64,000 bases of DNA from Pseudomonadota bacterium (lineage in GTDB: Bacteria; Pseudomonadota; Alphaproteobacteria; RF32; CAG-239), in the NCBI GenBank assembly GCA_918234285.1, contig CAKJXZ020000014.1, forward strand, positions 20,777 through 84,776, read 5' to 3'. The number at the start of each line of letters is the position of its first letter. Within the stretch, counting starts at the first letter, position 1. Both the position numbers and the translations under genes were made by a program. Below, one piece after another: positions 3,238-24,486 of this stretch. The notes under the pieces are model-generated. The model was not told the origin of the DNA. It did no database searches and saw only the letters and a program-made list of their open reading frames with translations.

Positions 3238-5940
3238 ATGGCTAAAAACTATGCTTATATCGGTTCCGAGAATTGTCCTATTCCGTACATGAACGATGAC
3301 GGACAATTAGTACTTCTGCGTGATGACAATACTTATATCCGTCTGCCGGTTATGTATGACGGCACTCCTGAAGACGTTCAGGCTAAGGTGCTGGGTAAAA
3401 TGATGCGAAATTTTCCGGTCAGAAGCAGAATTAATGACTTTGTAGAAAACTTGCGTCGCCGCAGCGACAATATCGACGTCAATATTGAAAGCAGCAATAT
3501 CTTTGCCCATCGTCGTCGCGCCAAATTTATCAAAGGTGAGCCTGGACGCGGTAAAACGCACGATTTGAAAACCCTTTGCAAAATGGTGGATCCGCAAGGG
3601 GGTATTTACGTTAACTGTAAAGATCGCGACTTGAAAACCTTGATTGTGCAGACTGTTTTGGATACGTCAAATATTGATGTTGAAAAAAATGCCATTGATG
3701 CCCGTATCAAAATGTATAACAAGGGCGATAAAAGCGCTTTATCCGCTGAAGGTATTTCACTTTTGAAAACCATGTTCGATGATGCTTTTACTATTGATGA
3801 AAGCGGTAAAATTTCGCTTGATTGGAACGGTGCACGCGGCAATACATCTTTGGATTCCGCCGACAGGGATAAAGAATTCGTAAGTTTGCTACAGCAGTTC
3901 TGCAAACGTGAAAATATCGACTATTCGTACAATATCAACAGCGTCGGCTTTGTGGAAAAAGACGGCGAGTTATTACAAGCGCTTGAAAGCGGCCGTCCGA
4001 TTATCTTAGATGAAATCAACCGCGGTAAAAACCAAGACTTCCTGTTGCCGTATTTGGACTTTTTGAACGGCAGTTACGAGGATATAAAAATTGTCGGTGC
4101 CAACGGCAGAGAAGTACACCTTTCCAAGGAAGATTTACCGGATACCTTTATGTTGGAAGCCACCGGTAACCCTGAAACCGCGGAAATGGGTATTAAAGAA
4201 AAAATGAGCGAGCCGTTGCGCGATCGTTTTGATATTTCCGAAATGGCCGATTTTAATCCGAAAGATTTTACGGATATGTATTGCTCTTTGATGACCGGTG
4301 TTCCGGTTTCCATCATCAGAGATGCTTATCAGCTTGAAAATGAGGAAGACTTATCCAATGTTTGTAAGTTTTTGCGCACCGTGGGTTTGAGCAAAAAAGA
4401 AGTAGATGCAATTCCGCCGGAGCAAATGATATATCTGGACAACGTGGGAATGTTTTTGGAAACGGCAGAATGTATCGGTAAGGCTCTGTATGAGATTTAT
4501 CAGTACAAAAAGGACACGGTAATCAGCTCCAAAACCGGTGTATATTGCGAAGACCAGGTATTGCGTAAACACATCCAGGACGAACCGTACAGCTTCCGTA
4601 TTTTGGAAGATATTTGCAATCGTGCTCGGACCTATATTCCGCAACGCGCCGGCAAATCGTCCAATAACCCGTTCTTGAACTATTCATTCGCCAAGCCGTC
4701 CGGAAGCAATACCCTGCAAATGCGCTTGCGCAACCAGGGCGAAGGCTGGGAAAAGGCTATTATTGGCGCGGTTAAAGAAGTGTTCAGTTGCAAGGGAATG
4801 AATCCGGAATTGGGCGGACAGGTTTTAGGTATTGCCAATCAAATTCTGGGACGTAACGGTATCGGCGACGAAGAAAAGCTGATGGAGGCCAGAGCGCTCG
4901 ACATGCCGCGTTTGAAAGATATGTTTGATTTTCCGATTCCGGGTGAAAAGAGTACCAAGAAGGCAAGTCAGGAAGCTCTGCGCATTCAGGAAATGATTTG
5001 CAAAATGGTTCGCGAAAGATATCCTTCCAACGAATCCAAGAGCAATGATGAAATTGTCGATCCTTTCGTAATTGAAGGTGTTTTGACAACCGTCAGAGAA
5101 AATCCGTTGGATCAGCATGCTTTGCTCGGAAAAGCCATTTTGGTTAACAATGCCGAAGAAACCAACAACCAAATGCCGTTCATCAAAAACGCGGCGGTGG
5201 TGGAAACGCTCGGTACCGCTTCGCTGGTAGAAACCAAGCATTTGGCAGATGTCGATGCATTTTTGACCACGTTGACCATCGATGGCCTGTCTGAAAGCAA
5301 TTTAGGCACGATTTGGCCGAGTATTTATTCCATGGACAGAAGTAAAGAGGAACCTCTGGAAATTCTTTCCGGACGCCACAGCAAAATAGCATACAACTCG
5401 TTTATATTGAAAGATGCTCAAGATAATCCGATTGCGCTTGATATAGTTCACGTTAAAATGCCTGACGGACAGAAGGCCGGCGAACCTCATACGCTGATTG
5501 TCGGCGAGAAGATTTCTCCGGTGATGGCATTCCGTCTGAAACAAAACGGTATTACCTATATCGACCGAAACGGCGGAGATGTGGCAGAAAGCGAAGACTC
5601 CGGCAAAAAACAGAGCGTGGAAAAGAGAATCAGAGAATGGATAAACAAAGCCGAAGTAAATGCCAATGACGATACTCTGGAAGTTTTGCTGACTGGAGCT
5701 GTTGATGAAAAATTCGATATTTCCAGCGTTGGTAATGTACAAAGTCTGTTTAAGTCCGGTCTGGAAAGCCGCAATATGGATAATATGGCACAAATGACCA
5801 CGTTTACGACTTCGGAACTCGATCGCGGGGTTGATAAGGCCGAGGCCTTTATTGACGGAGACGGCTCCAGAGTAAGCGAAGAAACCGCTAAGGTATATCA
5901 GGTTTTCGCCAATTTGGAAGATAGAAGTAACGATTATTGA
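3238..5940 (+). CDS. MoxR/dynein-midasin-like AAA+ ATPase with long C-terminal extension
   Basis: Walker A GEPGRGKT, Walker B IILDEINR, sensor-1 ATGN, arginine finger PLRDRF; large insertion between Walker A and B. Confidence 0.85.
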   Translation: MAKNYAYIGSENCPIPYMNDDGQLVLLRDDNTYIRLPVMYDGTPEDVQAKVLGKMMRNFPVRSRINDFVENLRRRSDNIDVNIESSNIFAHRRRAKFIKGEPGRGKTHDLKTLCKMVDPQGGIYVNCKDRDLKTLIVQTVLDTSNIDVEKNAIDARIKMYNKGDKSALSAEGISLLKTMFDDAFTIDESGKISLDWNGARGNTSLDSADRDKEFVSLLQQFCKRENIDYSYNINSVGFVEKDGELLQALESGRPIILDEINRGKNQDFLLPYLDFLNGSYEDIKIVGANGREVHLSKEDLPDTFMLEATGNPETAEMGIKEKMSEPLRDRFDISEMADFNPKDFTDMYCSLMTGVPVSIIRDAYQLENEEDLSNVCKFLRTVGLSKKEVDAIPPEQMIYLDNVGMFLETAECIGKALYEIYQYKKDTVISSKTGVYCEDQVLRKHIQDEPYSFRILEDICNRARTYIPQRAGKSSNNPFLNYSFAKPSGSNTLQMRLRNQGEGWEKAIIGAVKEVFSCKGMNPELGGQVLGIANQILGRNGIGDEEKLMEARALDMPRLKDMFDFPIPGEKSTKKASQEALRIQEMICKMVRERYPSNESKSNDEIVDPFVIEGVLTTVRENPLDQHALLGKAILVNNAEETNNQMPFIKNAAVVETLGTASLVETKHLADVDAFLTTLTIDGLSESNLGTIWPSIYSMDRSKEEPLEILSGRHSKIAYNSFILKDAQDNPIALDIVHVKMPDGQKAGEPHTLIVGEKISPVMAFRLKQNGITYIDRNGGDVAESEDSGKKQSVEKRIREWINKAEVNANDDTLEVLLTGAVDEKFDISSVGNVQSLFKSGLESRNMDNMAQMTTFTTSELDRGVDKAEAFIDGDGSRVSEETAKVYQVFANLEDRSNDY

Positions 5941-14079: not shown

Positions 14080-14091
14080 GGAGTGCGTAAC

Positions 14092-17000
14092 ATGGATAAT
14101 TATAAATTATGGAAAAAATTAAAAGATCAGGCGGCAAAACAAGGGTATGTCGATTATATCGGCTTTCTGCATCTTGATACCGACTTTATTAATGAAAAAT
14201 TGCCGAAAGATGCGCAGATGTTGGAGGTAGTTAAGAAAACTGTCGATATTGCCACCTATGATGATACGGAAGAAGGTGTTGATGAATGCCACTTATTAAG
14301 TATGGTAGAAATTGCCAAGAAATTTTGCAATGCCGAGGAAATTTTTAACGAATCGTTGCAAAAAGACGGCGGTAAAAATTTGGAAAAACAGTTGCGCCGT
14401 GGGGCAAAAGCACAAGGCGGCTCTTCCGGTTTTTTATACGATATGATGTACTATATAGGAGATAATCCGTTTTTTGATAAGGTATTGGCGGAGAATCCGG
14501 ATATAGTCGAAGGTTTGAAAAAGTATTTTGATGTAACCATGAGCGGGTTGACGGGTGATAAAAAATTAGATGACGAGCTGGAAGAAGATTATATTAGTTC
14601 GGTTATCAAGATTGCCGACAGCGGAAAATTGGCGCCGTATTTTGACGCATATGCGATAATGAACGCTACAATGGAATTAAACGAAAAAGAGAAGTTTTTG
14701 CGTCGTATGCAAAATTCAGCCGCTAGACATGACGGAAAGTTGACGCCGGGAATACTTAAAAAACGTATAGATGAAATTTTGAAAGCATTGCCGGAGCATC
14801 CGGAGATTCTGCCGATAATTGAAAAGAGCTTTGTTTTGGACAGTAAGGAGAAGCGTAGAGAAAGATACAAATACACCGACGACGATTCTGCATATGAGTA
14901 TGTAAATGAATCATATGAAGCAGATGAAACAGCGCTCGCAACAATTTGGGAACGCGGGTTGCTGAATGAGTTCTTCAACGTTGAAAAAGCGTTGGAACAC
15001 GGCAAACTCGGCGGCAAAGAGGGTTTGGCTTATGATGATAAGGAACGAATTGTCAATTTATATTTGCAGCGCGACGATTTGAACATATATCAGTTGCGAG
15101 CCTGTCTGGCAATTAGCCGAAGCGCGACGGAATGGGCGATTCACGACCATCCGGAAATCAAAGAGCGTGTCAATAAAATGCTGGAAGGTGCTCAATCGTA
15201 TAAGTTGTTGCAGAGCTTTGCCGACGATGCTACCCTGAATAAGTTTTTTGATATGAAAGAAAGATTCGAGCGCTCGGCCGAGGCGGTGCAACAGCTGAGC
15301 GGCAAGGAAGTATATACGATTTTTACCACGCCGGAAAGCGAAATTCCGGAAGCGGCGGAGATGAATCGGCAATACCGGATAATTAAAAAATATCTCGAAC
15401 AAACCAAGGATTTGAGTAATTACAGTTTTAATGACGATTTGTGTTACACCAGTTTTCGTAAAGACGAACGTTGGGTCGAAGACGGCGGGCTGAACGAGCT
15501 TTTGCAAGATGCCGGCACCTTTAAGGGAGCGCCGGAAATAACGCAAATGGTCGATGAATGTATCGGTCGGATTTTCGCTCACTATATCTATGATACTCAG
15601 GGCAGAAAATCGCGGTTTAACTATATAAGTACGTGCGGAATTGATGAGTTTGCCAAGAACATGAAAGAAGAAGTAACAGCCGACCCGGATTCGCCTAAAG
15701 CGCAATTTTATTTGAAGTATGCCTCGATAGTATTGGACCAGTACACTTCGTTCGACCGTACGTATATTGAGACGGCTGCGGTTTTGCTGCCGGAAATGGC
15801 AGAAAGAGGTCGGTTTGACGTTTGCAAACAAATCTTTATGGGGATGAAACAGGCGGACGGATATTACAGCGGTGCCAACACCTGGTGTTTGGAAAATATG
15901 CAAAAAGTGCTGTCGTCCGCGGAAACCGAAAAGCCGCTGTTTAAGTTTTATTTGCAAAATGCCAAAGAATTTTGTTCGACAATCGACCAATATTTGGAAT
16001 TTGCCGCGGTACTCGTCGGCAAAGATATGAATGCGCATCCGGAAATCACCGCTCAATTGGGCAAGGAAATCGGCGAGATGTATAAAGAAATGACGCCGGA
16101 AAATCCGCAAAAATGTGCCGATAAACTGGCGCGTATTTATCAATATTATCCGGCGCCGGAATTTGCCGAGATTATTGCCGAGGACAGCAAACCTTTGGAA
16201 CTGAAGGAAGAAAATTTGTGCACGTACTACACCAATTGGATATGTACCGGTCAGCAGAATTTTTCGGACGCGGTGGAACGTATCCTGGCCAGACAGGGAA
16301 AGTTTGTTTATGATCCGCAGGACGGTATTGATTATAAGCCGTTGTTGGAGCGGATTAAGCAGTCCGATATTAAGGAAATAGTAGTGCGTAAGCTGTTGCC
16401 GTCGCAAGATACCGATTTTGCCCTGAGCGGTTATAAAAAGCTGGAAAAGATAAATTTCGGTGATTGCGTGGGTGTAATCAATGCCGAGGCGCTGTTTGAT
16501 AATCCATCCTTGAAGATAATTGAAAAAGAATACGACGGGAAGATTACCGTTAATAATCTGGAAAAGCTGTTTGGTGATGCTTTGCCGAGTTTGGAGGAGT
16601 TCAAACTGCGGCCGACGGTTATACCGGAGCAGGAAGAAGCATTATATAATCTTTTGATGCAGCAAAAACCGGAGAGCTTGCACACGTTATGTTATGACTT
16701 TGCTAAAGAAAAAGCCATGAATCTGATGTACAAAAATATACTGTTGGTGGTGAACAGCCAAAATATGGATACCTATCGTGATTCTCTGATATCGCGCAAC
16801 GAGCAGTTTATCAGCTTCCATAAAGGTGAGAGGTCGTTGGAGCAACGCTATGTACTGGATTACGCGATTAGTGACAAAAGATTGGTCGAAGCTTTGTCTG
16901 TCATACCGCCGGAAAAACGGCCGACGTTGCAACAGATGGAGGAAACGTTTGACTCCGAAAATCCGAACAAACTGCATGAGCGTATCAAAGAGAGTTACGG

Positions 17001-17442
17001 CGAAGACCGGTATCAGGAGGTTATACAACAAGTGAGGAATTTGACGGCCGGCAATGAAGTTAAATTGAGTCTTGATTTGCAACTGGCTTGTCGCAACCAC
17101 GTGTTCATCGAACATCTGCGGGAGCTGCCGGCGGAGAAGCGGCCGAAGCTTTCCGAACTGTTTGCAGCCGTTAACTCGCAAATTATCAATGGTACTATTG
17201 CCGATAATTTGCTCGGAGAAGACGGGAAGGCCAACCGAGAAACCTGGCAGCGAATCATTGATATATTGAAGCCGAGCGACGAAGAAATCATTAATACGAC
17301 CAAGATGAAAAAATGTTCCGCAGAAATGAAGGAAATACTTGACAGTGTGCGTACGTTGCGCAAAGATCTCAAAGAGATGGTCGTAAAAGAAAAGCGACGT
17401 TCCGCTTTCGAAAGTTGGAAGAAAAACAATACAAAAGATTAG
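14092..17442 (+). CDS. Large hypothetical helical protein with LRR-like segment (paralogue B)
   Basis: SD AAGGAG before ATG 14092; shared blocks with paralogue A (DGGKN, KALPxHPE, DLNIxxL, TLNKFF, RIFAH, FYLKY). Confidence 0.8.
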   Translation: MDNYKLWKKLKDQAAKQGYVDYIGFLHLDTDFINEKLPKDAQMLEVVKKTVDIATYDDTEEGVDECHLLSMVEIAKKFCNAEEIFNESLQKDGGKNLEKQLRRGAKAQGGSSGFLYDMMYYIGDNPFFDKVLAENPDIVEGLKKYFDVTMSGLTGDKKLDDELEEDYISSVIKIADSGKLAPYFDAYAIMNATMELNEKEKFLRRMQNSAARHDGKLTPGILKKRIDEILKALPEHPEILPIIEKSFVLDSKEKRRERYKYTDDDSAYEYVNESYEADETALATIWERGLLNEFFNVEKALEHGKLGGKEGLAYDDKERIVNLYLQRDDLNIYQLRACLAISRSATEWAIHDHPEIKERVNKMLEGAQSYKLLQSFADDATLNKFFDMKERFERSAEAVQQLSGKEVYTIFTTPESEIPEAAEMNRQYRIIKKYLEQTKDLSNYSFNDDLCYTSFRKDERWVEDGGLNELLQDAGTFKGAPEITQMVDECIGRIFAHYIYDTQGRKSRFNYISTCGIDEFAKNMKEEVTADPDSPKAQFYLKYASIVLDQYTSFDRTYIETAAVLLPEMAERGRFDVCKQIFMGMKQADGYYSGANTWCLENMQKVLSSAETEKPLFKFYLQNAKEFCSTIDQYLEFAAVLVGKDMNAHPEITAQLGKEIGEMYKEMTPENPQKCADKLARIYQYYPAPEFAEIIAEDSKPLELKEENLCTYYTNWICTGQQNFSDAVERILARQGKFVYDPQDGIDYKPLLERIKQSDIKEIVVRKLLPSQDTDFALSGYKKLEKINFGDCVGVINAEALFDNPSLKIIEKEYDGKITVNNLEKLFGDALPSLEEFKLRPTVIPEQEEALYNLLMQQKPESLHTLCYDFAKEKAMNLMYKNILLVVNSQNMDTYRDSLISRNEQFISFHKGERSLEQRYVLDYAISDKRLVEALSVIPPEKRPTLQQMEETFDSENPNKLHERIKESYGEDRYQEVIQQVRNLTAGNEVKLSLDLQLACRNHVFIEHLRELPAEKRPKLSELFAAVNSQIINGTIADNLLGEDGKANRETWQRIIDILKPSDEEIINTTKMKKCSAEMKEILDSVRTLRKDLKEMVVKEKRRSAFESWKKNNTKD

Positions 17443-17464: not shown

Positions 17465-18577
17465 ATGGATTTGAGAGTATATTATAACAGTTACGGGCAA
17501 AGGGTGCCTTTGGGAGTTTTATCTGACCGTGATGAGAGATATATTTTTGAGTACGATGCCGGGTTCGAATACAGAGAAATCGATGTGTGTCCGTTGTTTC
17601 CGTCAGCCGAGGTGCTAAAGATAAAAGGCACTAGAAATATGTTGCCGTGTTTGTTTTGGGACTTTTTGCCGTCGGGGTTTAATGCCGAAGTTTTGTATAA
17701 ATTGAGTTCAGCGACAATTCCGCTTTTGAAACAGCTGGCAATGCACGGCCGACGCGGTGTCGGCGCATTGGAGTTTGAGCCGGAACTGGCTTATAATTAC
17801 GAAAAAATACCGGTTGATTTGGATATGATGGAAAGCGATATCCGTTATGAAAACAATTTGAGCCGGCAGTTTCGTTTGTCCGCAGGTATTGCCGGGCATA
17901 CGCCGAAAGTCGCGGTCAGAGTTTCAAAGGATAAGCAACAAATTTATGAAGATACCGACGAAGAAAATTTTGCCGATTGGATAATAAAATTGCCGTCGTC
18001 GCGGAAAAATCCGCTGGACGGGGTGGCCGAGTATGTTTATAATAAAATGGCAAAAAAGGCCGGTATTACCGTGCCGCAGTTTCATCTGTTTGATTCAAAA
18101 GCGGCGGCCGGATATTTCGGCAGCAAGCGTTTTGACTATCAAAACGGCGTAAAGCGCCATGTTCTTTCCATCGGCTCGCTGATGAACAAAAACTATTTGT
18201 TTGAAAGAATTTACCTCGGTTATTATACGGATATTGTTAAAAAAATCGCGCCGGAAGAAATAGAAAAATTGCTGAGATTACTGATATTTGATTTGAAGAC
18301 CGGCAATGAAGATATTCGCGGCAGGGGGATTTCCATGATTTTGACCGAAGAAAATAAGTGGATTTTGGCGCCGGCTTATGGTTTGGTGCCGTTCTCTTTG
18401 GAAAATGATTATACCCCAAAAATGCTGAAGAAAGATTACGAAAAAGATGCCGTCGATGCGCTTATTTATGATTTGTGCGAAGCGGCGGAATTTGACTTTG
18501 GTGCAACCGCCGAAATGATTGTACAGGTTGAGGACGCGGTGGCCAGTTATTCTCGTCTGAGTTTGGAACTTAAATAA
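17465..18577 (+). CDS. HipA-family kinase-like protein with degenerate catalytic motifs
   Basis: HipA N-terminal block (YIFEYD, FWDFLPSGF, GVGALEFEP), GxxPK loop, WIIKLP, FGSKRFD; GNEDIRGRG and LAPAYG replace GNxDxHxKN and LxPxYD. Confidence 0.85.
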   Translation: MDLRVYYNSYGQRVPLGVLSDRDERYIFEYDAGFEYREIDVCPLFPSAEVLKIKGTRNMLPCLFWDFLPSGFNAEVLYKLSSATIPLLKQLAMHGRRGVGALEFEPELAYNYEKIPVDLDMMESDIRYENNLSRQFRLSAGIAGHTPKVAVRVSKDKQQIYEDTDEENFADWIIKLPSSRKNPLDGVAEYVYNKMAKKAGITVPQFHLFDSKAAAGYFGSKRFDYQNGVKRHVLSIGSLMNKNYLFERIYLGYYTDIVKKIAPEEIEKLLRLLIFDLKTGNEDIRGRGISMILTEENKWILAPAYGLVPFSLENDYTPKMLKKDYEKDAVDALIYDLCEAAEFDFGATAEMIVQVEDAVASYSRLSLELK

Positions 18578-18646
18578 ATTATATCTGTTTATCAAGATGT
18601 TATGTACCGCCGGAAGAGGATCCTTGTCGGTAAAGGCAAAAATATC

Positions 18647-18674
18647 TTGACATTTTTATTTTTGGAATTATCGT
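18647..18674 (+). promoter_or_regulatory. Promoter of NAD salvage operon
   Basis: TTGACA-16 nt-TATCGT, which would place the start site near the first hairpin at about 18681. Confidence 0.55.
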
Positions 18675-18679
18675 AGAAT

Positions 18680-18793
18680 TGTTCTCGGTGCTTGCAGGGC
18701 TTATAGGCAGAGAACATTATAAAACCGAGCCGGTTTAATGAGATGAAAGTATTTTTATTTTGTTAGCGGCTCCTGTTTAAAGGAGTTTTTTTT
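18680..18793 (+). promoter_or_regulatory. Candidate riboswitch/cis-regulatory RNA, copy 1
   Basis: Hairpin with CAGGGCTTA loop; GAGCC(G) can pair with the loop or with CGGCTC; GGCTCCT/AGGAGTT hairpin plus T run covers the SD. Confidence 0.65.
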
Positions 18794-19336
18794 ATGAGTA
18801 AATATAAGTATAAACACGGTTTTTGCATTATGCGTGCCCAGCCGTTTCATATCGGGCACCAAAAAATCATTGATCAGATGTTGAAAGAATGTGAGCGCGT
18901 AACGGTGGCTCTGGGGTCGATTCAGGAACAAGGGACGGCGCGTAACCCGCTCAATTATACTACCCGCAAGAAAATGATTCAGAATATTTATCGCGACAAG
19001 CCGGAATACGAGCGGCTCAAAATCATCGGGCTGTTTGATATCAATAATCCGGCAGAGTGGGGAGATTTTGTGGTTGATTTCTTGAAAGAAAGTTTTCCGG
19101 ATTTACCGTTGCCTGAGGCCTATTATGCCGGTTCGGAATATGACGCGCACTGGTTTAAAGACCATTTCAAACATATTGTGTTGGTAGATCGTACCGATCC
19201 GAATTTTCCGTTTGTGACAGGGACTATGGTGCGTGATATGATTAAATTCGGCGACAAGCGTTGGAAAAATTTTGTGGCGCCGGAAAATCATCATCTGGTG
19301 GAAGAACATTTTAATAAGAAAAAAGGTATTGTTTAA
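18794..19336 (+). CDS. nadM: NadM-like nicotinamide/nicotinate mononucleotide adenylyltransferase
   Basis: RAQPFHIGH, LGS...RNPL...RKKMI, VTGTMVR; first gene of NAD salvage operon. Confidence 0.8.
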   Translation: MSKYKYKHGFCIMRAQPFHIGHQKIIDQMLKECERVTVALGSIQEQGTARNPLNYTTRKKMIQNIYRDKPEYERLKIIGLFDINNPAEWGDFVVDFLKESFPDLPLPEAYYAGSEYDAHWFKDHFKHIVLVDRTDPNFPFVTGTMVRDMIKFGDKRWKNFVAPENHHLVEEHFNKKKGIV

Positions 19337-19343
19337 TTTTACG

Positions 19344-19410
19344 CGTCTGCGTCTTGCGCAGGGCTTATGCAAGACAGACGATTTTAACCTGATAAGCCTG
19401 AAGGGAAGGA
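19344..19410 (+). promoter_or_regulatory. Candidate riboswitch/cis-regulatory RNA, copy 2
   Basis: CGTCT-GC-GTCTTGCG-[CAGGGCTTA]-TGCAAGAC-AGACG, then ATTTTAACC and TAAGCC complementary to the loop, next to the SD. Confidence 0.65.
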
Positions 19411-19414
19411 AATT

Positions 19415-20038
19415 ATGACTCAAAATATTTTAATGCGGATAGATTTTCAAAATGACTTCGTGCATCCGCACGGTGCGCTCAGTCTGAATGCACCGGAACT
19501 TATCACAAAACATCAAAAATTTGCCGATGCGCTGTTTGACGGCAGTTTTGATAAAATTATCGATACGTATGACACGCATTTTGCCGAAACTTACGGCAAT
19601 ACCTCGGAATCCGACAGCTTTCCGCCGCATTGTGTGCAAGGCACTTGGGGGTGGCAGCAGGCGGCGCCGTTTAAGCCGGATTTGGCGGTTGAAAAAATGT
19701 ATAAATCCACCACCAATATTTGGAACGAGTTGAAACAATATCGCACTTTGCAACAGGATTGGGGTGATACCAACGTTTATTTGTGCGGCGTTTTGAGCGA
19801 CGTGTGTGTTAAACAGGCCTTAAACGGGCTGTTAAAACACGGTGCTAAAGTGGTGATTATCGAGGATTTATGCCTGGGAGCCAATCAGCAAATCGGCGAT
19901 ATTTTGCAAAAAGAAGCTTATCAGCCGTTTATTGAGGCAGGTTATCTGCGACGGATTACGACAGCGCAATTTTTCCGCAAAGAATTGCATAATAAAAAAG
20001 TTCAACACAATTTAGTTCATAAAAGTTTAGGAGAATAG
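19415..20038 (+). CDS. pncA: Nicotinamidase (isochorismatase family)
   Basis: IDFQNDF, DTH, FPPHCVQGTWG, GVLSDVCV; operon context. Confidence 0.9.
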   Translation: MTQNILMRIDFQNDFVHPHGALSLNAPELITKHQKFADALFDGSFDKIIDTYDTHFAETYGNTSESDSFPPHCVQGTWGWQQAAPFKPDLAVEKMYKSTTNIWNELKQYRTLQQDWGDTNVYLCGVLSDVCVKQALNGLLKHGAKVVIIEDLCLGANQQIGDILQKEAYQPFIEAGYLRRITTAQFFRKELHNKKVQHNLVHKSLGE

Positions 20039-20040
20039 CC

Positions 20041-21534
20041 ATGACAAATACCAGACCGAATATTTTGGAAAACGGAACGCCGTTGTTTTGCGATTTATAC
20101 CATTTAACCATGGCGCAAGCGTGGTTTTTGGACGGTAAAGCCGAGGAAATCAAAACTTCGGAAGCGTTCTTTCGGAAAAATCCGTTCGGCGGCAGTTATT
20201 TGATGTGTGCCGGCTTGGGTGAATTTGTGCAGTGGCTGGAAAATTGGCATTTTACCAAAGATGACATTGATTATCTGCGTCAAGAAAAGAATGCCGACGG
20301 CAGTGCGCGTTTTGATAAGCGTTTTCTGGAATTTATCAAAGACAAAAAACTGCAAATCAGTATTAATGCGGTGCCGGAAGGAGAATTGGTGTTTCCGAAC
20401 GAGCCGGTGTATTCCGTAACCGGTCCGACTTGGCAGGTTGATTTGGTGGAAGCGGCCTTGTTAAACGCGTTTAATTCGCAGAGTTTGGTGGCAACCAAGG
20501 CATCGCGTATGATATATGCTGCTTCTTTGGACGGCAAACAACGTCCGCTTTTGGAATTCGGCTTAAGACGCGGGCATGAGATGGGCGGATTTTCCGAAAC
20601 CAGAGCGGCATTTATCGGCGGTGCAACCGGCACTTCCAACACCGCGGCGGCCAAACATTACGGGATTCCGGATTCCGGTACTATGGCGCACTCTTTTGTG
20701 ATGAGCTACGAAAAAGAGGTTGATGCCTTTAAGGCCTTTATGCGCGGCAATCCGGGGAATACCACGCTATTGGTCGATACTTATGATACACGCGAGGGAA
20801 TTAAGCATGCCATTGAAGCAACTAAGGAAGTCGGTTTGCCGCTGATGGGAATGCGGGTGGATTCCGGCGATTTGGCATATTGGGCGAAGGAAGCGCGCAA
20901 AATGATTGATGCCGAGGGCGATAATCCGTTGTTTGCCAATGTAAAAATGGTGGCTTCCAATGACTTGGATGAACACCTGATAGAAAATCTGCTGATAGTG
21001 CAAAAGGCGCCGTATGATGTTTTGGCGGCGGGTACCAAGTTGGTTACGGCTTATGATACTCCGGCATTGGGCGGAGTGTTTAAAACCAAGCAATATATGG
21101 GACGTCCGTGTATCAAAATCGCCGAAGGAAAAACTACCATTCCGGGGGCGACCAATGTGGTGCGAATCATACGCAAAGATAAGTTTGAGGGCGATATTAT
21201 CTGCGGTGCGGCCGATACGGATTTGGTGCAAGACGGCAAGCTGAGCCGCAATATTACTTCGTATACGCTTGACAGCCTGAACGGATTGAAACGCAATTTT
21301 AAAGCCGGCGAGCAGGCTTATTTGCTGTTGCAACCGGTGGTGCAAAACGGCAAGGTAATCAATCCGCCGGAGTTGAATTTGCAAAAACTGCAGCAACGCG
21401 GCAAGGCTAATTTGGCACGGCTTGACGAAGCATACAAGCGTTTGGCCAATCCGCATATTTACGGCGTGGGATTGGAAACAAACCTGTATAATACGCGGCA
21501 AAGTCTGATTATGAATGCCGGGAAGGGGAGATAG
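20041..21534 (+). CDS. pncB: Nicotinate phosphoribosyltransferase
   Basis: DLYHLTMAQA, EFGLRR, GTMAHS, LVDTYD, RVDSGDL, ASNDLDE. Confidence 0.95.
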   Translation: MTNTRPNILENGTPLFCDLYHLTMAQAWFLDGKAEEIKTSEAFFRKNPFGGSYLMCAGLGEFVQWLENWHFTKDDIDYLRQEKNADGSARFDKRFLEFIKDKKLQISINAVPEGELVFPNEPVYSVTGPTWQVDLVEAALLNAFNSQSLVATKASRMIYAASLDGKQRPLLEFGLRRGHEMGGFSETRAAFIGGATGTSNTAAAKHYGIPDSGTMAHSFVMSYEKEVDAFKAFMRGNPGNTTLLVDTYDTREGIKHAIEATKEVGLPLMGMRVDSGDLAYWAKEARKMIDAEGDNPLFANVKMVASNDLDEHLIENLLIVQKAPYDVLAAGTKLVTAYDTPALGGVFKTKQYMGRPCIKIAEGKTTIPGATNVVRIIRKDKFEGDIICGAADTDLVQDGKLSRNITSYTLDSLNGLKRNFKAGEQAYLLLQPVVQNGKVINPPELNLQKLQQRGKANLARLDEAYKRLANPHIYGVGLETNLYNTRQSLIMNAGKGR

Positions 21535-22317
21535 ATGATGGAAAAACTTTGGCATAAATTGCAAAGCGGCTTGCGGCAATATTGCGCCGAAAACGGTTTT
21601 AATAAAGCAATTCTCGGACTTTCCGGCGGGCTGGATTCGGCGCTGACCGCGGTGTTGGCGGCAGATGTTTTAGGTGGCGAAAATGTTACGGCGATTATGA
21701 TGAAAACTCAATATACATCTGATTTGAGCCTGCAAATTGCCCGCGAAACGGCTAAGCTCAACCATCTTGATTATCATGAGTTGGATATTGAACCGTTGGT
21801 GCAGGCGGAAATCGGCTTTTTAGCGCAGGCTTTTAAGGCTCCCGTGCGCGGTATTACGGCAGAAAATTTGCAGGCACGCATTCGCGGACAGCTGTTGATG
21901 GCGTGGTCCAACCAAAACGGCGGGTTGGTGTTGGCTTGCGGCAACAAATCGGAGGCATTGACCGGATATTGTACGCTCTATGGTGACACTTGCGGCGGTT
22001 TAATGCCGATAGGTAACGTATATAAAACCACGATTTTCGCATTGGCCAAATGGCGCAATACTTTAGGATATGCTTTGCCGGAAGCGGTAATCACGCGGGC
22101 ACCGTCGGCAGAACTTGCGGCAGGGCAAAAAGATGAAGACTCGTTGCCGCCATACGCTGTTTTGGACGAAGTATTGAAATTGCTTTATGATGAGCAAAAG
22201 TCAGTAGCAGAAGCGGTTGCTGCCGGATTTAATACGGCTTTGGTCGAGCGGGTGGAAAAATTAATTCGCCGCTCGGAGTTCAAACGCAAACAGATGGCGA
22301 CTGCTCTGGCGGTATAA
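21535..22317 (+). CDS. nadE: NAD+ synthetase, synthetase domain only (NH3-dependent)
   Basis: LGLSGGLDS, ENLQARIRG, GNKSE, GYCTLYGD, PSAEL..GQKDEDSLPPY; no glutaminase domain. Confidence 0.95.
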   Translation: MMEKLWHKLQSGLRQYCAENGFNKAILGLSGGLDSALTAVLAADVLGGENVTAIMMKTQYTSDLSLQIARETAKLNHLDYHELDIEPLVQAEIGFLAQAFKAPVRGITAENLQARIRGQLLMAWSNQNGGLVLACGNKSEALTGYCTLYGDTCGGLMPIGNVYKTTIFALAKWRNTLGYALPEAVITRAPSAELAAGQKDEDSLPPYAVLDEVLKLLYDEQKSVAEAVAAGFNTALVERVEKLIRRSEFKRKQMATALAV

Positions 22318-22446: not shown

Positions 22447-24486
22447 ATGACCGAAGAAAAAACGCAAAGAGAACGCAATCAGGATATCTTGGAGGCATAC
22501 GACGGGTCGGACATTATGCATCCGCAGGTTATATTGCGCAAAGTTAAGCAAGTTGACGGCAATATTCTTGATGATGAATTGTTCGGCGTGAAGCTCAGTT
22601 GCTATCGCGCATATGATGCCTATGAAATAATGGAAAAGTTGCCGGAGAAATTTCAATGGGCAGGCTGGAGTATTGCCGATTTTATGGCTGAATATACAAA
22701 GCTGCTGGAGCACCCGACGGAGAGAATACAGTTGGAAGCGTTGGCAAAAAGCGGTTGCCGGATTTTTATTGAGGACAAATGCTCCTCAATGGGAGGAAAC
22801 AGTAAAAGTGCCGGATACAGAGGACAATCTTCACATATTGCGGGAAAACCGGCCATTAAATTGGTGGCATACATATTTGGCGACAGAACTTTTTTGCACG
22901 AAGCCATACATAATTCGGATTTGCGTTTGGGCTGGAATTATTTCACTAAGCAAAAGATTTATCAGGCGGCGATTATGATGCTTGACGCGCAAAAAATTCA
23001 AGCTTCTCACGGCTATCAAAGCGTAAAAAAACTGCGCCAGATTAACGAGGTTTATCAGGACGGCGAAATATATACCGAGGGCTTGGCCTGGATTGGCTCC
23101 ATGTCGATGGAAGAATTGGCTCATGAAAAAAATCATATCGGCAAAAACCTGAAAGTTCTGCATTCTCTGTATACCGAGGCATTGTTAAAAGAGCAAGGGG
23201 CGGTGTTGGATTGTTTTCGCTTTTGGCAACCTTCGGCGCATATAGAAAAATTGTTGGAAACTTATAATGCCAACGGCCAGAAAATCGGCAAAGAGCGCGA
23301 TAAAATATTAAAACAACAGAAGCATCTCTGGGACGAAATGATGAAATTCCGTAAGGAAATAAATAAACTCAAAGTAAACGGGCTGGAGAGCAAAACATTG
23401 TCGCTTGGGGGCGGTTCGTATTATTGCCAAACCGGCGGCGTTAAATCGCTGTTTCCGTTGTATATGGCGCAAGACAAGGCCGACAAAGCATTTCAACAAA
23501 TTGAAGATGATGAAAAATTGTCGTCGAACACCAAAAAGCGGAGGCATACCGCAGTATTAAAAGCGTTGTTTAAGGAAATTAAGGCGGGAGATTTGAACGT
23601 TCCTTCATTGTTTGCGGAAAAGTTTTTGACCTGCGAGGAATATCTGTATAAAATGCGTAAATATTATCCGTCTTATGATTATAATGATATGCTTTTCGAT
23701 TTGTCGCCGAAGGAAAACGAGCCGAAAGGAATCGCCGGGCGTAAGCGGCTTTATGATAATTTGGAGGCTCAGGCCAATATTTTGTATATGCAGATGCATT
23801 CCGTTTATACGCTCAAGGAGTGTGCGTTGGCATATTTATATAAGGCATATCACGAATCCGTGCGTTCCGGCGATGAAATGGTCAAAATGGCAATGATGAA
23901 CGATATGAGTTCGCTTGAACATAAAAGAGAGTATGTAAAAGACTTGATAACCAGAGCGCGGGAAAAAACGTCGCGGCGTATGACAGGGCGTTATGCGGCA
24001 GAAGCCTTTATGGGCATGGAATATTTGTTGCAGAAATATAATCTGCCGCGAAATACGCACGGGGTGTTGGAAGCGGATGATTTGCGGAATTTTCACACTT
24101 CGGAGAAAGTCGTTGATGATTTAAAATGGCTTAAGACCGAAGAAAATGCCGACGGCTTGCCGCTTGAAATGTATAAGTGTTTTGATGCGGGAATTGTCAG
24201 CGATTATTGCTCGCGACCGGCAAGCGCTTTCAATGCTAAAAGCGAGGATTACTTACCGAATAACTATAGAAATCAGGACTCACAAAAGGTTGCCTATACT
24301 CGCGCCTTGTATGAATTTTTGGCACTGCGACACGCTTATCAGGCCAAAACGCATTGCAAGAAATTTCCGCAACATTTGCAGTTGCAGGCGTTTATGCCGA
24401 ACTCCGATTATTACAGACAAATCAGATCTTTAGCGGCACCTCAGGTAATTTCTGCAAAAGATTCTAAAGATAACGGCGGAAAGTGA
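22447..24486 (+). CDS. Hypothetical protein with zincin-like HExxH motif
   Basis: TFLHEAIH with downstream YTEGLA. Confidence 0.7.
   Translation: MTEEKTQRERNQDILEAYDGSDIMHPQVILRKVKQVDGNILDDELFGVKLSCYRAYDAYEIMEKLPEKFQWAGWSIADFMAEYTKLLEHPTERIQLEALAKSGCRIFIEDKCSSMGGNSKSAGYRGQSSHIAGKPAIKLVAYIFGDRTFLHEAIHNSDLRLGWNYFTKQKIYQAAIMMLDAQKIQASHGYQSVKKLRQINEVYQDGEIYTEGLAWIGSMSMEELAHEKNHIGKNLKVLHSLYTEALLKEQGAVLDCFRFWQPSAHIEKLLETYNANGQKIGKERDKILKQQKHLWDEMMKFRKEINKLKVNGLESKTLSLGGGSYYCQTGGVKSLFPLYMAQDKADKAFQQIEDDEKLSSNTKKRRHTAVLKALFKEIKAGDLNVPSLFAEKFLTCEEYLYKMRKYYPSYDYNDMLFDLSPKENEPKGIAGRKRLYDNLEAQANILYMQMHSVYTLKECALAYLYKAYHESVRSGDEMVKMAMMNDMSSLEHKREYVKDLITRAREKTSRRMTGRYAAEAFMGMEYLLQKYNLPRNTHGVLEADDLRNFHTSEKVVDDLKWLKTEENADGLPLEMYKCFDAGIVSDYCSRPASAFNAKSEDYLPNNYRNQDSQKVAYTRALYEFLALRHAYQAKTHCKKFPQHLQLQAFMPNSDYYRQIRSLAAPQVISAKDSKDNGGK

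Follow-up and report, generated by a model that had tools for sequence, protein, structure and literature searches.

Introduction

Two classes of riboswitch for nicotinamide adenine dinucleotide (NAD+), which few cofactors match in abundance or age, had been reported as of 2023 according to the available part of PMC10702441, and both are described, in the available text of PMC7749635, as rare and of narrow host range, one belonging to nadA in Acidobacteria and the other to pnuC in Streptococcus. The present work deals with another RNA element, found twice in a 64,000-nucleotide (nt) stretch of the genome of an uncultured alphaproteobacterium (GenBank contig CAKJXZ020000014.1, positions 20,777 to 84,776; lineage RF32, CAG-239), hereafter the window. 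One copy stands before a nadM-like gene and the other before pncA, the first two genes of a four-gene operon for NAD salvage. Comparison with related loci indicates that this element is real and conserved, a cis-regulatory RNA absent from the catalogues and organised like an OFF riboswitch for NAD salvage, and it is almost certainly a functional structured leader.

Two kinds of system from other pathways resemble it in part. The pyr operon regulated by PyrR carries several attenuators, in which a conserved hairpin serves as anti-antiterminator and, once stabilised by the protein effector, allows the terminator to form; we know of no pseudoknot in this PyrR-dependent system. In the guanidine-II (mini-ykkC) and guanidine-IV (mepA) riboswitches, two small hairpins are present whose loops pair upon ligand binding.

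As to the RNAs that respond to NAD+ itself, the accessible portions of the published descriptions present NAD+-I as two adjacent homologous bulged-stem domains in one leader (PMC7708056), and NAD+-II as a helix P1, a large internal loop J1 and a helix P1a with a variable, dispensable terminal loop, in which a pseudoknot of 3 base pairs (bp), formed by U12 C13 C14 with G59 G60 A61, joins J1 to the Shine-Dalgarno (SD) sequence itself; NAD+-II is there proposed to be a translational OFF switch of the pnuC gene in Streptococcus (PMC7749635, PMC9841397). The "miniature NAD+-II" riboswitch, which a preliminary description of the window had counted among the known kinds, corresponds in the available text only to an engineered aptamer for nicotinamide mononucleotide (NMN) from which P1a has been deleted, and to no natural class (PMC9841397). 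The literature searched on riboswitch candidates, on nicotinamidase, pncB and nadE, and on RF32/CAG-239 contained no description of the present element, published consensus drawings lying outside this comparison. Moreover, among the matches listed, the terms NAD+-III, pncB motif, nicotinamide riboswitch and NMN riboswitch did not occur, pncA was unmentioned in the literature on riboswitches and NAD+, and the titles and abstracts of the NAD+-II/pnuC-motif literature since 2022 announced no new natural class.

Conserved structure of the leaders

Two hairpins of the same geometry, sharing the loop G-CAGGGCTTA-T on stems of unrelated sequence, had been noticed in the preliminary description, and both are present in the sequence as it had them (copies 1 and 2, Table 1), the two units lying 664 nt apart with one gene in between. 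There are two exact occurrences of the 11-mer GCAGGGCTTAT in the window, and the whole genome of 2,005,265 bases has it only at these same two sites, while its 30 one-mismatch matches genome-wide (17+15 in all) are no commoner than those of a reversed-pattern control (11+15). The single-sequence folding z-scores of the short pieces are unremarkable (-1.4 and -0.65), so that the case rests on comparison with relatives. For this comparison, 80 loci were fetched by means of the nadM-like protein, giving 150 covariance-model matches at E≤0.011, and covariation was counted in MAFFT alignments, not fitted to structure, of 72 leaders related to copy 1 (type 1) and 65 related to copy 2 (type 2).

The first hairpin of each leader (H1) has 13 bp and a 2-nt bulge on its 5' side. 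In type 1 leaders 93.2% of the alignment cells of H1 pair and 10 of the 13 pairs are changed on both sides, and in type 2 leaders the corresponding values are 98.7% and 9 of 13, as compared with 33-52% and 30-47% of paired cells, respectively, in slid controls of the whole structure. Over the two types together, the 93-99% of paired H1 cells stand against 29-53% in slid controls. RNAalifold independently predicts the same helices in both types, with 13 pairs in type 2, 10 of them compensatory; an example is the type 2 pair at columns 8-34, which is GC in 62 sequences, CG in two and AU in one. The proposal that a conserved loop on exchanged stems betrays a functional RNA is thereby borne out, the stems covarying and the pseudoknot described below showing a compensatory change. 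For copy 2, the hairpin as first drawn holds, but its GC bulge probably does not: covariation among the relatives favours the register CGTCTG/CAGACG (19344-19349 with 19375-19380), a bulge at C19350-G19351 and TCTTGCG/TGCAAGA. In the RNAalifold predictions the type 2 bulge lies one position from that of type 1, the two having one alignment column in common, which is G in 149 of the 150 matches.

These stems also bear on the idea that the palindromes are DNA operators at which a dimeric transcription factor (NiaR, NrtR or NadR type) controls NAD metabolism, a role to which the position of both inverted repeats near gene starts in an NAD operon would lend itself. Such a role is highly improbable, given that the arms share no sequence between the copies and covary for pairing, the invariant part being the asymmetric centre, and that copy 2 lies within the transcription unit, 8 nt past the stop codon of the nadM-like gene. 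Furthermore, the downstream tail pairs with the loop, and 120 of 130 distinct sequences close the loop with a G.U pair, which on the opposite strand would be an A-C mismatch; the frequent G.U pairs thus show an RNA on the + strand and not a DNA palindrome.

The loop has the consensus N-AGGGCUUA, the last eight positions of which (columns 19-26) keep the majority base in 146-150 of the 150 matches, and H1 is followed by an A/U-rich linker ending in AAC. The pairing of the loop with the downstream tail, GGCUU(A):(U)RAGCC, is paired in 99-100% of cases, with 5 bp in copy 1, including one G.U (GGCUU:GAGCC), and 6 bp in copy 2 (GGCUUA:UAAGCC). In type 2 leaders, where it is 99.2% paired, one U-A pair has become C-G in four distinct sequences; this compensatory change, from GGCUUA:UAAGCC to GGCCUA:UAGGCC, is found in three sequences of the genus of the window and in one more distant locus (L142). 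Covarying helices and invariant unpaired nucleotides, a combination expected of riboswitches, are accordingly found together in these leaders.

An H-type pseudoknot had been proposed. The loop-tail pairing stands, but the tail is not free: it is held in the loop of a second hairpin (H2), so the fold consists of two hairpins joined by a loop-loop helix. In type 1 leaders H2 has the form AAAC(C/U)-GAGCC-GGUUU, and its flanks pair in each of the 77 unique sequences that were folded with GAGCC held unpaired, among which 52 distinct 22-nt stretches were listed. In type 2 leaders its 5' strand is CCY, just past the conserved AAC, and its 3' strand is the RGG of the pncA ribosome-binding site. Of the 63 type 2 sequences folded, nearly all have this complementarity of CCY to RGG, and the five sequences with a GGA site instead of GGG have CCU or CC, never CCC.

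Some bases of the H1 stems are also nearly invariant, namely GUCUU/AAGAC in type 2 (19351-19356/19370-19375) and GUUC/GAAC in type 1 (18681-18684/18712-18715), and pairing alone does not explain them. A promoter-like site upstream of copy 1 (Table 1) would place the start of transcription near the first base of H1, and the invariance of the type 1 stem may reflect its overlap with promoter and transcript start.

Distribution and link to NAD salvage genes

A covariance model was built from 15 leaders of the genus, and a broader model was used for the phylum sample; the searches covered samples of genomes, and absence means not found in those searched. Exactly two strong matches were obtained in the genome of the window and two in each of 12 of the 50 genomes of the genus. 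In the order sample, 70 of 151 genomes had matches at E≤0.5, belonging to 13 of the 20 genera of one family, and these matches were nearly always paired, 660-830 nt apart. Among 150 other genomes of the class there was no credible match (a single weak one, E=0.099), and among 150 other genomes of the phylum none at E≤0.5; viral contigs scanned with the nadM-like protein gave four pattern matches, none of which was confirmed. The host loci come from metagenome-assembled genomes of uncultured Alphaproteobacteria of the rumen and of the animal and human gut.

Within this family the link with the genes is close. All 80 loci have copy 1 upstream of the nadM-like gene. Where pncA comes next (68 loci), copy 2 immediately follows the nadM-like gene in 66, whereas none of the 10 loci with sufficient space but without pncA has it; at contig ends there are two more copy 2 matches. 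Similarly, of 24 relatives in the genus, the seven with a nadM-like gene are all among the strong RNA matches, while the remaining 17, without this gene, have no match below E=0.17. The motif, which might have turned out to be dispersed over the genome or missing from orthologous leaders, is therefore present in those leaders, with two matches per genome that always flank the nadM-like gene, and the association with NAD genes suggested at the outset holds. A consistent link with the genes of one pathway, as known for riboswitches, is thus observed.

The two loci with pncA and without a detected copy 2 (L107 and L132) have pncA only 17 and 77 nt past the nadM-like gene, and may have lost the second switch in the course of evolution.

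Two expression platforms

The two leader types differ in what follows the sensor. In type 1, 78 of the 79 unique leaders have GGCUCCU...AGGAG followed by four or more U immediately ahead of the start codon, and in copy 1 the sequence AAGGAG (18780-18785), which is the SD sequence for the ATG at 18794, lies within this hairpin; the terminal hairpin of type 1 leaders thus reads as a terminator and a cover of the ribosome-binding site in one. In the 5' arm of the terminator, GGCUC is the exact complement of the tail GAGCC, which provides for an antiterminator whose sixth pair covaries (53 G-C, 11 A-U, 2 G.U, 8 mismatches and 4 variant arms; n=78). When forced, the antiterminator equals the unconstrained minimum free energy (MFE) fold in 51 of 72 type 1 leaders and lies within 3 kcal/mol of it in 71, and the terminator forms in 70 of 72 folds with the pseudoknot strands blocked vs 16 of 72 unconstrained folds. 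Type 2 leaders have no terminator and carry instead the anti-SD:SD helix of H2. One aptamer is consequently found on different expression platforms, as is characteristic of riboswitches, and both designs lead to predicted repression once the loop-loop contact is locked.

In seven loci (L133, L141, L145, L147, L148, L150 and L151), a conserved extra stretch of about 100 nt is found between sensor and terminator.

The platforms could also belong to a structured leader that senses no ligand, that is, a stability or processing element, or an attenuator responding to nucleoside triphosphate pools, temperature, Mg2+ or transcription-translation coupling. The copy 1 terminator and antiterminator of the window are nearly isoenergetic, and any kinetic factor could tip the balance between them. 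This explanation is nevertheless improbable: the bulged G, the loop A-G and the linker AAC are invariant in two platform contexts and in 13 genera, and the motif accompanies NAD salvage genes only, neither of its two matches per genome lying elsewhere. Invariant unpaired bases and an exclusive link with NAD genes together favour a specific sensor over a ligand-independent leader.

Comparison with known RNA families

The preliminary description could not match the motif by eye to the NAD+ riboswitches, and Rfam 15 offers no family for it: at gathering scores nothing matched anywhere in the window, and 20 orthologous loci yielded nothing but two tRNAs. Nine weak matches at E≤10 in 18570-19430 (E 1.3-9.9, 9.5-18.4 bits), bearing the names AaHKsRNA20, PyrR, AgvB, atoC, SNORA20, Ms_AS-5, ROSE_2, U6 and BSR0709, are far below the gathering scores and were rejected as chance.

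NAD+-I (nadA, RF03013) gave no match in the window at its gathering score (37.5 bits) and none at E≤10 in 18570-19430, its best match in the whole genome being one of 16.9 bits on another contig. The likeness lies in a cis-regulatory RNA on an NAD biosynthesis gene with a repeated sensing unit. In the present case, however, there are two full switches with a gene between them and different read-outs, each unit consisting of two hairpins with loop-loop pairing, and the host of NAD+-I belongs to the Acidobacteria.

NAD+-II, so far as its available descriptions go, resembles the present element in being a compact RNA of one domain that stands on a gene related to NAD; in both, the 3' tail takes part in a pseudoknot, the first helix is followed by an A-rich linker, and the SD sequence is occluded. 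By contrast, the terminal loop is here nearly invariant and forms 5-6 bp with a tail other than the SD sequence, a second hairpin bears this tail, the genes are nadM-like and pncA and not pnuC, and the host belongs to the Alphaproteobacteria and not to Streptococcus. The P1-J1-P1a architecture with its pseudoknot between J1 and the ribosome-binding site, as given in the same partial sources, is not found, the terminal loop being itself a pseudoknot strand whose partner is not the ribosome-binding site. Likewise, in a comparison by eye with the nucleotides named in the available text of PMC9841397, the NAD+-II core (J1 G6-G15, A39-G41, the A-tract J1K and the pseudoknot UCC:GGA) has no correspondence with N-AGGGCUUA/AAC/RAGCC. 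The nearest formal topology in that text is the engineered minimal NMN aptamer (NAD+-II with P1a deleted), with one hairpin, an H-type pseudoknot and an A-rich linker; it is, however, a laboratory construct, and its J1-derived loop, G6 U7 U8 A9 C10 G11 U12 C13 C14 G15 ... A39 C40 G41, is unlike N-AGGGCUUA (PMC9841397, seen in its available part).

Outside NAD metabolism, the kissing-loop design of two hairpins with paired loops is shared with guanidine-II and guanidine-IV, which differ in loop sequences, ligands and genes; no Rfam family was matched here. The presence of several attenuators in one operon, each with a conserved hairpin, is shared with the PyrR system, from which the present element differs in its pseudoknot, absent to our knowledge from the PyrR system, the effector of which is a protein. 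The PyrR attenuator model (RF00515) reached 18.1 bits, its gathering score being 54, with E=9.2 at 18711-18795, that is, in the terminator region.

The preliminary description had considered NAD+, NMN, NaMN or another pathway metabolite as effector, or else a regulatory protein. The parallel with PyrR brings in the possibility of protein-mediated attenuation, in which an RNA-binding protein, once loaded with a pathway metabolite, would recognise the H1 loop or the loop-loop complex and stabilise both the anti-antiterminator and the SD-sequestering fold; the protein might be a moonlighting enzyme of the operon itself, for instance the nadM-like or the PncB protein. The near-invariant stem bases that pairing leaves unexplained and the small unpaired core would suit such an effector, with which the logic of the expression platforms is equally compatible. 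On the other hand, the conserved loop is base-paired to the tail, with a compensatory change, which is easier to reconcile with RNA tertiary folding than with a protein site in single-stranded RNA; the weak PyrR match covers the terminator and not H1; and no candidate regulator gene is linked to the operon, the neighbourhood outside the four genes not being conserved. Control by a protein is, all in all, the less likely reading but a serious rival, and it is less improbable than the ligand-independent leader.

Proposed mechanism and significance

We infer that a small molecule would be the trigger, that it would belong to the pathway and that it would switch the operon off in cells. Direct sensing by the candidate riboswitch is probable, and the chances of NAD+ or a near relative among the pyridine nucleotides being that molecule are about even. 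The putative sensor, of some 55-60 nt, comprises the 13-bp H1 with its bulged G, closing G.U and loop N-AGGGCUUA, the linker, and H2, whose loop RAGCC pairs with GGCUU(A) of the H1 loop in a kissing loop or pseudoknot. A product of the pathway would bind where the AAC linker and the bulged G come together with the closing G.U and the loop A-G, and lock the kissing helix. The ligand would most likely be NAD+, the alternatives being nicotinate adenine dinucleotide (NaAD), nicotinate mononucleotide (NaMN), NMN and nicotinate. With copy 1 locked, GAGCCG would be withheld from the antiterminator and the terminator GGCUCCU...AGGAG-U7 would form, burying the ribosome-binding site as well, so that the whole operon would be off. 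With copy 2 locked, H2 would be stabilised and, its 3' strand being the ribosome-binding site of pncA, translation of pncA would be blocked; copy 2 would thus restrain the entry step, pncA, a second time, at the level of translation.

Several points weigh against a small-molecule sensor of this kind. The motif is limited to one family of uncultured bacteria, so that much of the covariation is shared by descent and the shuffle controls overstate significance. As to the loop-loop helix, the type 1 pairing GGCUU:GAGCC is invariant (72/72) and the covariation of the pseudoknot is confined to a single position, with at least two independent events. As to H2, its covariation in type 2 is weak, 121 of 2000 permutations being as good and the duplex energy of own pairs being -4.92 vs -4.84 kcal/mol for other pairs, and in type 1 it pairs in 77.9% of cells (MAFFT), partly through register shifts. 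Moreover, only some 15 conserved unpaired nucleotides are available for a pocket. The unconstrained MFE fold of copy 1 in the window is already the terminator (-31.6 vs -31.5 kcal/mol for the antiterminator), and with energies so nearly equal, switching there would hang on co-transcriptional kinetics. Finally, the operon has two attenuators with the same conserved hairpin, and repeated attenuators in one operon are typical of control by a protein, as in the case of PyrR.

Whether the element constitutes a third natural NAD-sensing class ("NAD+-III"), with a kissing-loop aptamer unrelated to NAD+-I and NAD+-II, used transcriptionally and translationally in one operon and governing the only NAD-making pathway of the family, we consider an evenly balanced question. 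If it does, a third unrelated class, on Preiss-Handler genes, would mean that RNAs came to sense pyridine nucleotides more than once. Structural work would gain a new small aptamer fold, usable also in biosensors of NAD or its precursors, and there would be a first regulatory handle on the use of vitamin B3 in an abundant uncultured lineage of the gut and rumen. The pair of switches would be a clean natural case of one aptamer with transcriptional and translational read-outs in the same mRNA. Were the effector a protein, the leaders would represent a new PyrR-like attenuation system for NAD metabolism, unreported in the literature searched.

The NAD salvage operon and its surroundings

The features of the locus are collected in Table 1. 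The nadM-like protein matches the NCBIfam models of NMN adenylyltransferase below their cut-offs and the NMN adenylyltransferases of the PDB with E values of 3e-7 to 2e-4, and, as judged from these scores, is a distant relative of the archaeal-type NMN/NaMN adenylyltransferases. With the three genes that follow it makes up, as annotated, a complete Preiss-Handler route from nicotinamide to NAD. The gene order is kept in the related loci, in which PncA is present in 68/80, PncB in 65/80 and NadE in 72/80.

Table 1. Features of the leaders and genes of the NAD salvage operon; positions are those of the window.
Feature	Coordinates	Strand	Description	Basis
Promoter-like site	18647-18674	+	TTGACA-16 nt-TATCGT; predicted function	consensus scan, 10/12 matches
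Copy 1 (type 1) hairpin H1	18680-18716	+	7 bp, GG bulge, 6 bp, closing G.U, loop CAGGGCUUA at 18695-18703	sequence
Copy 1 H1, lower stem and bulge	18680-18688, 18710-18716	+	TGTTCTC 18680-18686 with GAGAACA 18710-18716; GG bulge 18687-18688	sequence
Copy 1 H1, upper stem and loop	18689-18709	+	TGCTTG 18689-18694 with TAGGCA 18704-18709; DNA loop CAGGGCTTA 18695-18703	sequence
Copy 1 hairpin H2	18722-18736	+	AAACC/GGUUU stem; 5-nt loop (tail) GAGCC 18727-18731 pairs with GGCUU 18698-18702 of H1	
Copy 1 antiterminator	18727-18772	+	GAGCCG 18727-18732 with CGGCUC 18767-18772, enclosing a central hairpin	folds
Copy 1 terminator and ribosome-binding-site cover	18768-18793	+	GGCUCCU...AGGAGUU, then U run	terminator scan
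nadM-like gene	18794-19336	+	archaeal-type NMN/NaMN adenylyltransferase, 180 amino acids (aa)	Pfam CTP_transf_like
Copy 2 (type 2) hairpin H1	19344-19380	+	6 bp, CG bulge 19350-19351, 7 bp, closing G.U, loop CAGGGCUUA at 19359-19367 (DNA CAGGGCTTA, as in copy 1)	sequence
Copy 2 hairpin H2	19388-19404	+	anti-SD CCU 19388-19390 with SD AGG 19402-19404	folds
Copy 2 tail in H2 loop	19393-19398	+	UAAGCC (DNA TAAGCC), pairing with GGCUUA 19362-19367 of H1	
SD region and pncA ATG	19400-19417	+	GAAGGGAAGG and ATG	sequence; open reading frame start 19415
pncA	19415-20038	+	isochorismatase-family nicotinamidase	Pfam, NCBIfam
pncB	20041-21534	+	nicotinate phosphoribosyltransferase	Pfam, NCBIfam
nadE	21535-22317	+	NAD synthase	Pfam, NCBIfam

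Five genomes of the genus, each 99-100% complete (G000, G011, G014, G020 and G045), were checked for other routes. None of the five has NadA or, above cut-off, NadD, and full NadE is present in three of them, only in those with the operon and inside it; the operon is therefore the sole recognisable NAD-making route where it is present. The complete relatives without it, G011 and G014, have no recognisable NAD synthesis and may be dependent on imported NAD or precursors.

The region is flanked by two open reading frames (ORFs) with no Pfam match at E≤0.001, at 14083-17442 (+; 1119 aa) and 22447-24486 (+; 679 aa). Directly upstream of the copy 1 leader lies an ORF for a HipA-like toxin-antitoxin kinase (17465-18577, +); HipA stands beside the operon in only 1 of the 80 related loci, so the neighbourhood is variable. 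Finally, two of the loci in which pncA does not follow the nadM-like gene have other genes nearby: in L119 a second NadM-like ORF is found further downstream (4880-5416, +), and in L149 the nadM-like gene adjoins an ORF for a fused pyrophosphatase/AAA_33 kinase (3468-4385, +).

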